A DNA stretch of 13,636 nucleotides from Escherichia coli (GTDB lineage: Bacteria > Pseudomonadota > Gammaproteobacteria > Enterobacterales > Enterobacteriaceae). Every line of letters begins with the position of its first letter. Position 1 is the first letter of the stretch. Shown in pieces: positions 497 to 3,473 of the stretch. Under the pieces are notes generated by a model. The model worked only from the letters and a program-made list of their open reading frames with translations. It was not told the origin of the DNA and did not search any database. The translations under genes were made by a program, and so were the position numbers. The stretch lies in NCBI RefSeq assembly GCF_003334315.1, contig NZ_QOWR01000080.1. One strand, 5' to 3'.

Positions 497-1315
497 ATGA
501 AATTAGCCAGCCGCTTTGGTCGCGTAAATCAAATCCGTCGCGATCGCCCATTAACGCATGACGAACTGATGCAGTATGTCCCCAGCGTATTCGGGGAAAA
601 TAAGCACGAATCACGCAGCGAACGCTATACCTATATTCCCACCATTACCCTGCTCGATAACCTCCAGCGTGAAGGATTTCATCCTTTCTTTGCCTGCCAG
701 ACCCGCGTTCGTGATGTGGGTAAACGTGAGCATACAAAACACATGCTGCGTCTGCGCCGGGAAGACCAGATCAATCGCAACCAGGTGCCGGAAATTATTC
801 TGCTCAACAGCCATGACGGTTCCAGTTCTTATCAGATGCTGCCAGGGCTGTTCCGTTCTGTTTGTTGTAACGGACTGGTCTGCGGCGAGTCGTTTGGTGA
901 AGTACGGGTACCGCATAAAGGCAATGTGGTGGAGAAAGTGATTGAAGGCGCTTATGAAGTCCTCAGTGTTTTTGACCAGGTGGAAGAGAAACGCGATGCC
1001 ATGCAGTCGCTGATGCTGCCTCCCCCTGCGCAACAGGCGCTGGCAAAGGCGGCGCTGACGTACCGCTTTGGCGAAGAGCACCAGCCGGTGACGGAATCCC
1101 AGTTGCTGGCTCCGCGCCGCTGGCAGGATGAATCCGGCGATCTGTGGACGACCTACCAGCGTATTCAGGAGAACCTGATCAAAGGTGGTTTAAACGGGCG
1201 CACGGCAAAAGGTGGTCGCACGCACACCCGCGCCATTAAAGGCATCGACGGCGATATCAAACTCAACCGCGCCCTGTGGGTGATGGCTGAAAACATGTTG
1301 CAACTGGCCTCATAA
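497..1315 (+). CDS. DUF932-family protein (YfjQ/YafZ-like) of cryptic prophages
   Basis: 272-aa ORF with AAGGAA ribosome-binding site 7 nt upstream of the ATG. The translation ([20 protein letters not shown]...NRALWVMAE) matches my recollection of the YfjQ/YafZ paralog family. Confidence 0.7.
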
Positions 1316-1344
1316 ACAACGCTATTAATAGTAAAGGAAATACG

Positions 1345-1818
1345 ATGTCTGAACTGATACTAACACCGGTATTTTCGGTGAGTGAACAACGCGTTATCCG
1401 CCGTGCGATGCGTCTGCTGGAGAAATATCAACGCAATCCTGGCGAATCTTTTCTTTCCTCTGACGCCACAAAAACCTGGCTGCAACTGCATCTGGCACGA
1501 CAGGAGCGGGAAATGTTTGTTGTGCTCTATCTCGATAACCAGAACCGACTGCTGGAACACGAAACGCTATTTCTCGGCACGATTAACAGCACGGAAGTAC
1601 ATCCCCGTGAGATTGTGAAATCAGCGCTACGGCACAATGCCGCAGCAGTGATCCTTGCGCATAACCATCCCTCCGGCGTGGCGGAACCCAGTCGGGCCGA
1701 CAGACTCATTACAACGAATATTGTTAAGACACTGGATTTGGTGAAAGTGAGGGTGCTGGATCATTTCATTATTGGGGCGGGGGATGTCCTCTCTTTTGCC
1801 GAACGGGGCTGGCTGTAA
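1345..1818 (+). CDS. RadC-like JAB-domain protein (YeeS/YkfG/YfjY family)
   Basis: 157-aa ORF with AAAGGAAA ribosome-binding site. It carries the JAB/MPN metalloprotease motif HNHPSG and the family-typical VLYLDNQN...HETLF...EVHPREIV segment. Confidence 0.8.
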
Positions 1819-2153
1819 TGCTGCAAAAGGACAAGGTCATGCAACAAGAATGGGGGCTTCCCTGTACCGTAACACCACGCTTCACTGCTCGACTGGTACA
1901 GGAAAGACATAACCTGCATTACCTGGCTGATCGGGCCGCAATCACCGGGAAATTCAGCTCCCCGGATCTGCTGCATATCGACCAGGCTTTTCCGGTGCTG
2001 ATGAAACAACTGGAGCTGAAACTGGCTGACGGTGAACTCTCCGCCTGCCAAAAACGTACCGTCACGCTATACGCCAAAGGACTAACCTGCGAAGCCGATA
2101 CGCTGGGTTCCTGTGGTTACGTCTATATCGCTATTTATCCCACTCAACGCTGA
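1818..2153 (+). CDS. CbeA/YeeU-family antitoxin (type IV toxin-antitoxin, cytoskeleton-bundling enhancer family)
   Basis: 111-aa ORF whose ATG overlaps the RadC stop (TAATG). WGLPCTVTPRFTARLVQE...HYLADRA...DQAFPVLMKQLE...TVTLYAKGLTCEADTLGSCGYVY matches YeeU/YfjZ/YafW as I recall them. Start could instead be the internal ATG at 1839. Confidence 0.75.
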   Translation: MLQKDKVMQQEWGLPCTVTPRFTARLVQERHNLHYLADRAAITGKFSSPDLLHIDQAFPVLMKQLELKLADGELSACQKRTVTLYAKGLTCEADTLGSCGYVYIAIYPTQR

Positions 2154-2183
2154 GTTTTAACCTCCTTAATACGGAACATCGTT

Positions 2184-2525
2184 ATGAAAATTATTCCTGC
2201 AACGACGCTGCGGGCGACGACGTCATATCTGTCGCCCGTCGTGGTCTGGCAAACATTACTGACCCGCCTGCTGGAGCAGCACTACGGGCTGAATCTTAAT
2301 GACACACCATTCAACAATGAAAAGGTGATTCAGGAACACATAGACGCCGGGATCACTCTGGTCGATGCCGTCAATTTTCTGGTGGAGAAGTACGAATTGA
2401 TCCGTATCGACAGGAAAGGATTTAGCTGGCAGGAACAGACGCCTTATCTTCGTGCAGTCGATATTTTGCGGGCGCGGCAGGCTACAGGTCTGCTGCGTCG
2501 CAGCCATAACACCACGGCACGGTGA
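2184..2525 (+). CDS. CbtA/YeeV-family toxin (FtsZ/MreB-targeting type IV toxin)
   Basis: 113-aa ORF directly downstream of the antitoxin. [19 protein letters not shown]...[25 protein letters not shown]...[11 protein letters not shown] matches the YeeV/YkfI/YpjF family. Confidence 0.8.
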
Positions 2526-2639
2526 ATCTGCGAGTCTCCTTCCCGATTTACATCGCCAAAATTACTTCTCTCATAACTCCCTGCATAATGCGCCTGCTGT
2601 TCATGGCTGGCGCATTTGCTTTTATACGGACAAAAGATT

Positions 2640-3473
2640 ATGCAAACAGAAGCTGAAGTCTTAACCGATCATAACGAGCTAATTTGCTCGACCAGTATTG
2701 AGCGTATCGTGACGGGTCGTGATGCTGCGTTGAGTCTGATAGAAATCCTGATCCATAAGCTTGATGATATCTCACGGCTAACCTCCAGCATCGGTGGTGA
2801 TGTGGCGGAGCATTGGGCGATGCGTCAGGGCCATTCCTTCGACTGCTGGCTGGTGCAGCCGGTGGATAAAGCCATGCCGGTGATCACCCGAAATATCGAT
2901 CGCAGCATCTGGCGCGATCTCATGCTGAAGTCTGGGATGTTGACTCTGATGGATGCCGAAGCTCGCAGTCAGTGGGCAAAGAATCTGGAGGAGGGTGATC
3001 TCCCGGCGATTAGCGAAGCCAACATCCTGAGTACCTTTGAACAACTTCACCACAATAAGCAGGATGTTTTCGAACGTGGGATTATCAATGTATTTAAGGG
3101 ATTGAGCTGGGACTACAAAACCAATAATCCCTGTTATTTCGGTAAGAAGATTATCGTTAACAATCTGGTGAAGCATGACAGATGGGGCTACAGCCTGAAC
3201 TGGGGCTGGCGGCGAGATCAGCTTGCCGATCTGGAGCGTATGCTCTATTTGCTGGATGGCAAACCTATCCCCGATAACCGGCATGATGTCTCCATCCGGT
3301 TTATGGATTTTGTGCGCGATAATCCGCATCAGCAGATTTTCGAAGATGAGTTGTTCACTATTCGCTACTTTCAGAAGGGCAGTGGGCATATCACTTTCAA
3401 ACGCCTGGATCTGGTGGAGAAGATGAATGATATCGTGGCGAAGCACTTTCCGAGGATGTTGCCTGCGAAATGA
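2640..3473 (+). CDS. DUF4942-like protein (the full-length YeeW-type gene that usually follows cbtA)
   Basis: Long ORF following the toxin on the same strand. ATG at 2640 preferred over the TTG at 2616 given in the ORF track. Family assignment is from recollection of gene order, with moderate certainty. Confidence 0.55.
   Translation: MQTEAEVLTDHNELICSTSIERIVTGRDAALSLIEILIHKLDDISRLTSSIGGDVAEHWAMRQGHSFDCWLVQPVDKAMPVITRNIDRSIWRDLMLKSGMLTLMDAEARSQWAKNLEEGDLPAISEANILSTFEQLHHNKQDVFERGIINVFKGLSWDYKTNNPCYFGKKIIVNNLVKHDRWGYSLNWGWRRDQLADLERMLYLLDGKPIPDNRHDVSIRFMDFVRDNPHQQIFEDELFTIRYFQKGSGHITFKRLDLVEKMNDIVAKHFPRMLPAK

Follow-up and report, generated by a model that had tools for sequence, protein, structure and literature searches.

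We analyzed a 13,636-nucleotide (nt) stretch of Escherichia coli DNA (NCBI RefSeq assembly GCF_003334315.1, contig NZ_QOWR01000080.1), referred to here as the window, which carries a five-gene module with a CbeA/YeeU-family antitoxin and a CbtA-family toxin at positions 497 to 3473. This region is very likely an intact, compact version of a conserved operon found at the distal end of islands of the P4-integrase type ("CP4-like"), here with neither a DUF987 gene nor an ArdB-type antirestriction gene. The gene set is already annotated and represents a known operon in a recurrent variant of its gene content; this particular paralogue is experimentally uncharacterized. The five genes are as follows.

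497 to 1315, + strand: DUF932 gene, the first of the module, encoding a 272-amino-acid (aa) homologue of YafZ/YfjQ (PF06067, 6e-53, residues 36-261).
1345 to 1818, + strand: RadC-like JAB/MPN gene, 157 aa (NCBIfam TIGR00608, 156 bits against a cut-off of 134).
1818 to 2153, + strand: CbeA/YeeU-family antitoxin gene, 111 aa from the ATG at 1818 or 104 aa from the ATG at 1839 (PF06154, 8.5e-47).
2184 to 2525, + strand: CbtA-family toxin gene, 113 aa, nearest to YkfI (PF06755, 4.3e-58).
2640 to 3473, + strand: DUF4942 gene, the last of the module, 277 aa (PF13708, 2.6e-70, residues 83-271).

All five open reading frames (ORFs) are intact, and each has a strong, essentially full-length family match. 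The antitoxin aligns to PF06154 from residue 10 onward and covers the whole model (1-101), and toxin residues 1-110 align to positions 1-110 of the 112 in PF06755, which amounts to full length. Pfam was used for the CbeA, CbtA, and DUF4942 proteins, for which NCBIfam returned no model. Sequence searches of the PDB matched the antitoxin to 2H28 (YeeU), 2EA9/2JN7 (YfjZ), and 2INW, with the match starting at query residue 9 or 10; the same searches with the toxin and the DUF4942 protein gave no match, and a search of the whole window against Rfam gave nothing at gathering score. The RadC-like protein retains an intact HNHPSGx5SxxD metalloprotease motif, and residues H106, H108, S116, and D119 are invariant in an alignment with YeeS, YkfG, and YfjY. 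DUF932 and RadC are 29 nt apart; RadC and the antitoxin either overlap or are separated by 20 nt, depending on the antitoxin start; the antitoxin stop at 2153 and the ATG of the toxin at 2184 on the same strand leave a gap of 30 nt; and 114 nt separate toxin and DUF4942. RefSeq gene calls give the identical five genes in the same order, overlap included, with the third annotated as a YeeU-family type IV antitoxin of 111 aa; the DUF932 protein corresponds to RefSeq WP_001683514.1 in an identical genome. The DUF4942 ORF is open from 2616 or 2640, and the start called by the Prokaryotic Genome Annotation Pipeline (PGAP) falls at window position 2640. An earlier note on this DNA had proposed this gene order and these families and had described the module as a paralogous CbtA/CbeA copy of the CP4-island kind; the profile matches support the order and the families, and both toxin and antitoxin belong where the note had placed them.

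From position 205 on, the window is E. coli chromosome with 100% identity to several complete genomes (e.g., NZ_CP019259). In the identical genomes (strain 13C1065T), the island starts with a tRNA-Leu gene and a tyrosine integrase gene and ends before nanS/nanM/nanC and the fim genes, and the module sits at its far end. The island is thus placed as a probable insertion at tRNA-Leu (leuX), adjoining the nan/fim region.

In all three paralogous modules of E. coli K-12, as the earlier note correctly states, a DUF987 gene lies between the RadC-like gene and the antitoxin gene (yeeS-yeeT-cbeA, ykfG-ykfH-yafW, and yfjY(lfgB)-ypjJ-yfjZ). We used tblastn to align YeeT, YkfH, and YpjJ against the whole window; this analysis identified chance matches only (best E = 0.096), none of them within positions 1345-2525. 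Six-frame ORFs of 35 aa or longer were also screened with a DUF987 hidden Markov model (HMM), which matched none of them, whether in the window or in the 28-kb island carried by an identical genome. Because the CbeA core begins 30 nt past the RadC stop, there is no room for a gene between RadC and antitoxin, whichever antitoxin start is used. The note's statement that no small gene intervenes therefore agrees with the ORF, tblastn, and HMM searches, and no small ORF was found to have been missed between 1818 and 2184. The same searches gave no match to an ArdB-type antirestriction gene (yafX/yfjX) in the window or the identical 28-kb island, and the RadC-like gene follows DUF932 after 29 nt. 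On absent genes the note was thus right about DUF987 and had overlooked the ArdB-type gene. A literature search on "DUF987" returned three incidental mentions only and, within the library searched, no functional study of a DUF987 gene.

Alignment to the K-12 modules placed the toxin nearest to YkfI (79% identity, followed by 70% to YpjF and 56% to CbtA) and the antitoxin nearest to CbeA (66%, with 59% each to YafW and YfjZ), and the RadC-like protein has 54-58% identity to all three K-12 copies; by these values the module is distinct from each of them. Within a large protein collection, the antitoxin falls in a small E. coli cluster with at least 96% identity, after which identity falls to about 76% or less. 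This gap marks a distinct allele family and not a copy of a K-12 module.

The CP4-6 module ykfG-ykfH-yafW-ykfI (with yafX and yafZ) belongs to the same operon family and has the same orientation, running from DUF932 to a RadC-like gene, antitoxin, and toxin. Its YkfI is the closest characterized toxin, being 113 aa long as in the window and retaining F65, whereas the antitoxins share only 59% and the RadC-like proteins 58% identity. CP4-6 also carries an ArdB-type gene, yafX, before RadC and the DUF987 gene ykfH between RadC and antitoxin, both of which the window lacks, and it keeps only a fragment of the DUF4942 gene (ykfN), whereas the gene is full length in the window. The CP4-44 module yeeS-yeeT-cbeA-cbtA (YeeU/YeeV), the founding type IV toxin-antitoxin system, has the same Pfam families; its CbeA is the nearest K-12 antitoxin, and the window antitoxin matches the YeeU structure 2H28. 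CP4-44 differs in the presence of DUF987 (yeeT), in a toxin with a longer C-terminus than that of the window, and in the 19-residue N-terminal extension that precedes the WGL motif of CbeA, as compared with 4 or 11 residues in the window. The CP4-57 module yfjX-yfjY-ypjJ-yfjZ-ypjF (lfgABCDE) is of the same operon family as well, and its YfjY/LfgB, a reported JAB-type protease, shares the HNHPSG...S..D motif with the window RadC. Unlike the window, it contains ArdB (yfjX/lfgA) and DUF987 (ypjJ) genes and has no downstream DUF4942 gene.

A 251-nt probe across the RadC/antitoxin junction located the junction of the window in 221 of 5,426 complete E. coli genomes, at one copy each; among the carriers are the uropathogenic "clone D i14" and numerous isolates from poultry and humans. 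Gene calls agree across these 221 genomes, and the genes are kept at 96-100% identity although the module sits at several chromosomal sites, in islands with different cargo (McrBC, a TIR-domain protein, a phosphorothioate-dependent nuclease). A second, unrelated DUF987-less junction, with a 10-nt gap and ArdB retained, was found in 40 further complete E. coli genomes; most other E. coli modules have DUF987. These counts rest on junction-specific searches. A figure of 326 genomes, obtained at ≥80% coverage in a 1.2-kb "distant" search, was rejected as a count of DUF987-less modules because joined pieces can span modules that contain DUF987.

This conservation bears on whether the module is a decaying, nonfunctional island remnant. 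The island is cut in the window by the end of an insertion sequence (IS), IS1, 290 nt upstream of DUF932, and low expression has been reported for the K-12 copies (PMC5371832), both of which would fit decay; however, the five intact ORFs with full-length domain coverage and the near-identity of the genes in 221 genomes at several sites make it extremely improbable.

For comparison across species, we assembled 80 loci from GTDB species representatives, chosen as best matches to the antitoxin and not as a random sample, and typed the neighboring genes with HMMs built from K-12 and window proteins. Among 69 Enterobacterales loci, taken at species level, in which RadC and CbeA are both complete, 11 are without DUF987 (~16%; 12 of 70 when locus L064 is counted), and the DUF987-less junctions are of at least four sequence types. 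RadC directly abuts the antitoxin in 10 of these 11 loci. The exception is L042 from Buttiauxella brennerae (L042:2891-3491), in which an unrelated insert of ~600 nt lies between RadC and antitoxin in place of DUF987; it contains an ORF of about 140 aa (MNINAVIQPAGF...) and represents a third kind of occupant at this position. Even allowing for the biased sample, the survey shows the arrangement to be a recurrent minority variant. The earlier note had set the arrangement apart from the K-12 modules; being annotated in RefSeq, present in 221 complete E. coli genomes, and recurrent in several lineages and genera, it is not special.

The nearest RadC relatives are those of two uncharacterized loci, L085 from Limnobaculum allomyrinae (77%) and L083 from Photorhabdus thracensis (80%). 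Like the window, both have CbeA directly after RadC and neither DUF987 nor ArdB, and L085 shows the identical order DUF932-RadC-CbeA-CbtA-DUF4942 with the same ~113-nt toxin-DUF4942 spacer and its hairpin. They differ in a RadC-CbeA spacer of 35-36 nt without overlap and in an antitoxin with only 59% identity, and they come from different Enterobacterales families. A second DUF987-less lineage comprises L005 (an E. coli ST80 strain), L080 (Klebsiella pneumoniae ATCC 13883), and Brenneria, Serratia, and Symbiopectobacterium loci. There, as in the window, RadC is followed by CbeA (after 10 nt) and CbtA without DUF987, albeit with ArdB kept, DUF4942 absent, another junction sequence, and another antitoxin allele (60% identity).

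In a neighbor-joining tree of RadC, DUF987-less loci appear in several places, and one tight cluster interleaves both kinds. When L025:3130-3560, which has DUF987, was compared with L079:1300-1470 and L005:4264-4434, which do not, the RadC 3' ends hardly differed as far as the stop codon, beyond which the sequences diverged completely. Such sharp divergence at the RadC stop points to a recombination breakpoint and to a swap of the whole cassette rather than a clean deletion. We propose that DUF987 and the ArdB-type gene are dispensable accessory genes of the operon family, and that their presence may vary through exchange of downstream cassettes, either [DUF987-CbeA-CbtA] or [CbeA-CbtA], which would recombine at the RadC 3' end. 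The window would then fall in a RadC lineage dominated by modules that lack both DUF987 and ArdB.

Simple deletion of DUF987, with the tight RadC/antitoxin junction as its scar, appears unlikely. It would be consistent with the presence of DUF987 in the next-nearest RadC relatives (L014, L022, and L084, 73-75%) and with a spacer that is shorter in the window than in its DUF987-less relatives (20 nt versus 39-42 nt). On the other hand, no DUF987 remnant was detected, the two nearest RadC relatives are themselves without DUF987 and match the window in the RadC 3' end and in the GAATGGGGGCTTC motif at the antitoxin 5' end, and near-identical RadC genes that differ in DUF987 differ across the whole downstream cassette, which argues for recombination.

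The junction itself reads ...ctggctgTAATGctg..., with ggctgTAATGctg at positions 1811-1823. The RadC stop codon TAA (1816-1818) and an in-frame ATG (1818-1820) form the TAATG overlap to which the earlier note had drawn attention, and which is indeed present. Whether it is a gene overlap depends on the choice of start codon, as judged from the sequence: the ATG at 1839 appears to be an equally good candidate. The antitoxin may be translated by termination-reinitiation at the RadC stop or from this second ATG, 21 nt downstream and preceded by a Shine-Dalgarno sequence. The chance that translation starts at 1839, giving a 104-aa protein behind a 20-nt spacer with its own Shine-Dalgarno sequence and making TAATG a fortuitous in-frame upstream ATG, we place just short of even. 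An AAGGA at 1827-1831 lies 7 nt ahead of this ATG, and the predicted pairing energies are similar (-6.5 kcal/mol for ATG 1839 and -5.0 for ATG 1818), the duplex for ATG 1839 being at least equal. Both the Pfam domain and the PDB matches begin only at residues 9-10 of the longer form; all other DUF987-less lineages start the antitoxin 10-42 nt past the RadC stop, behind a Shine-Dalgarno sequence; and L062 has the same TAATGC at its RadC stop, with the ATG out of frame and running into a stop. One European Nucleotide Archive (ENA) gene caller also picks the 104-aa form (P0004), whereas PGAP consistently calls the 111-aa form. Two further observations do not favor the downstream start. The only variation in 1818-1838 among four E. 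coli lineages is a change from GAC to GAT, which is synonymous in the extended frame, albeit at one site only and so not informative; and homologues have between 4 and 19 residues ahead of the WGL motif, a range that accommodates both forms. Overlap of the RadC stop with the next start is also common in the family, since 13 loci that contain DUF987 show an ATGA overlap between RadC and DUF987; a start codon overlapping the RadC stop is thus usual in this family rather than peculiar to the window.

We infer that the five closely spaced, same-strand genes most likely share one transcript, which would start from a promoter 5' of DUF932, where we found one candidate; a hairpin resembling a terminator lies in the spacer between toxin and DUF4942.

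449 to 477, + strand: candidate sigma-70 promoter, possibly that of the operon; TTCAGA-17-TATATT in AT-rich sequence 5' of DUF932 (9/12 in a consensus scan).
2583 to 2625, + strand: hairpin (about 2583-2619) with U-tract (to 2625), resembling a terminator or attenuator and ending ~15 nt before the DUF4942 start.

Within K-12, yfjXY-ypjJ-yfjZ-ypjF behaves as one operon, and YfjY/LfgB is a reported JAB-type protease (PMC10846083). The toxin-DUF4942 spacer (2526-2639, 114 nt) is conserved in length and sequence in loci of Mixta, Citrobacter, Enterobacter, Kosakonia, and Limnobaculum, and RNAalifold predicted a GC-rich hairpin of 15 pairs, two of which show compensatory changes. Other loci have an insert of ~800 nt at this spacer instead.

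A more far-reaching reading holds that, in DUF987-less modules, TAATG translationally couples the RadC-like JAB protease to the antitoxin, that the protease controls antitoxin stability or processing, and that DUF987 is an optional modulator. Its model is the paralogue LfgB, which is reported to degrade the antitoxin MqsA. We consider this reading very improbable; if true, the operon would be a three-component, protease-gated toxin-antitoxin system, and not a two-gene pair with unrelated neighbors.

In type IV toxin-antitoxin systems, the toxin inhibits polymerization of FtsZ and MreB, and the antitoxin neutralizes it without binding the toxin. By family, the antitoxin of the window is of the CbeA type, which neutralizes toxins of the CbtA type. 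The surface by which CbtA, YkfI, and YpjF bind the FtsZ H6/H7 loop includes F65, and F65S abolishes this binding; all three toxins also block MreB-dependent elongation, producing lemon-shaped cells (PMC5624674). When the window toxin was aligned with these three proteins, F65 and the surrounding AVNFLVEKY block were invariant, whereas position 15, an MreB-relevant Arg in CbtA, is Tyr in the window toxin and Cys in YkfI and YpjF. By analogy, the toxin may bind FtsZ through the F65 surface, and probably MreB as well, and so block both elongation and division. The antitoxin would oppose it in the manner of CbeA, stabilizing cytoskeletal filaments without sequestering the toxin. Co-expression of upstream genes, DUF987 included, did not change the toxicity of YkfI or YpjF (PMC5371832).

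The earlier note had raised the possibility that the toxin differs in specificity from CbtA, YkfI, and YpjF, acting on FtsZ only, on MreB only, or on another target. We found no positive evidence for such a shift, and we regard it as quite unlikely. Tyr at position 15 in place of Arg, together with divergence from YkfI at 21% of positions, might hint at it; but YkfI and YpjF also lack R15 and still produce lemon-shaped cells, C15R has no effect (PMC5624674), the F65 block is unchanged, and the host is E. coli, so the target proteins are the same. The CbtA homologue of Erwinia amylovora retains both F65 and R15, yet it causes elongation only and gave no interaction with either FtsZ or MreB in yeast two-hybrid assays (PMC6521040), suggesting that specificity can drift within the family; because of this homologue, sequence alone leaves room for a change.

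Several points weigh against our interpretation of the region as a compact, co-transcribed form of the operon that varies by cassette exchange. Promoter-like sites in the region do not exceed the shuffled expectation, which makes the promoter call weak, and the conserved hairpin with its U-tract indicates that DUF4942 may not be simply co-expressed. The window is also mosaic: the closest matches to its RadC, CbeA, CbtA, and DUF4942 proteins come from different loci, and the antitoxin resembles those from modules with DUF987 (up to 72%) more than those found with the nearest RadC relatives (59%). This mosaicism leaves ancestral absence, deletion, and cassette swap all as possible histories of the window junction. 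Furthermore, the surveyed loci were selected by their match to the window antitoxin, and the expected toxin-antitoxin behavior of this paralogue is a prediction from its family.

The module has a number of neighbors in the window. Directly downstream on the same strand is a second toxin-antitoxin pair, consisting of a CopG/ribbon-helix-helix (RHH) antitoxin (3550-3798) and a RelE/ParE-family toxin (3802-4077), and beyond it are a helix-turn-helix protein whose C-terminal half is very acidic (4194-4982) and an HNH endonuclease (5904-6554). Positions 1-204 are the terminal ~204 nt of an IS1 element (IS1B-like), with the inverted repeat ending at ~188-204, and upstream island sequence is displaced; in identical genomes without this IS1, a hypothetical gene ends at about window position 261. 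At the other end, positions 13563-13636 are the end of an IS4-family element (IS421/IS186-like) in the 3' end of fimA, whose ORF ends early (...ATGAATHKR*), and several complete genomes share this fimA::IS junction. IS elements thus flank the window on both sides, as one would expect of a contig from a draft assembly. Between positions 10906 and 11020, fimB seems to carry a frameshift: reading on from the run AACAAAAAAGGAAC meets a TGA after 12 codons, and the frame reopens only at ~11018. The corresponding run in K-12 fimB presumably has one more A. The frameshift may reflect either a genuine mutation or a sequencing error in the homopolymer.

By itself this arrangement is of little import, and its main implication is that the K-12 layout should not define the module. 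DUF987 and the ArdB-type gene would be optional parts of a RadC-CbeA-CbtA operon, exchanged by recombination at the RadC stop codon. A natural allele without either gene occurs widely in E. coli, uropathogenic and avian isolates among them, and would lend itself to work on the part that DUF987 and the RadC-like protease play in regulating the toxin-antitoxin pair.

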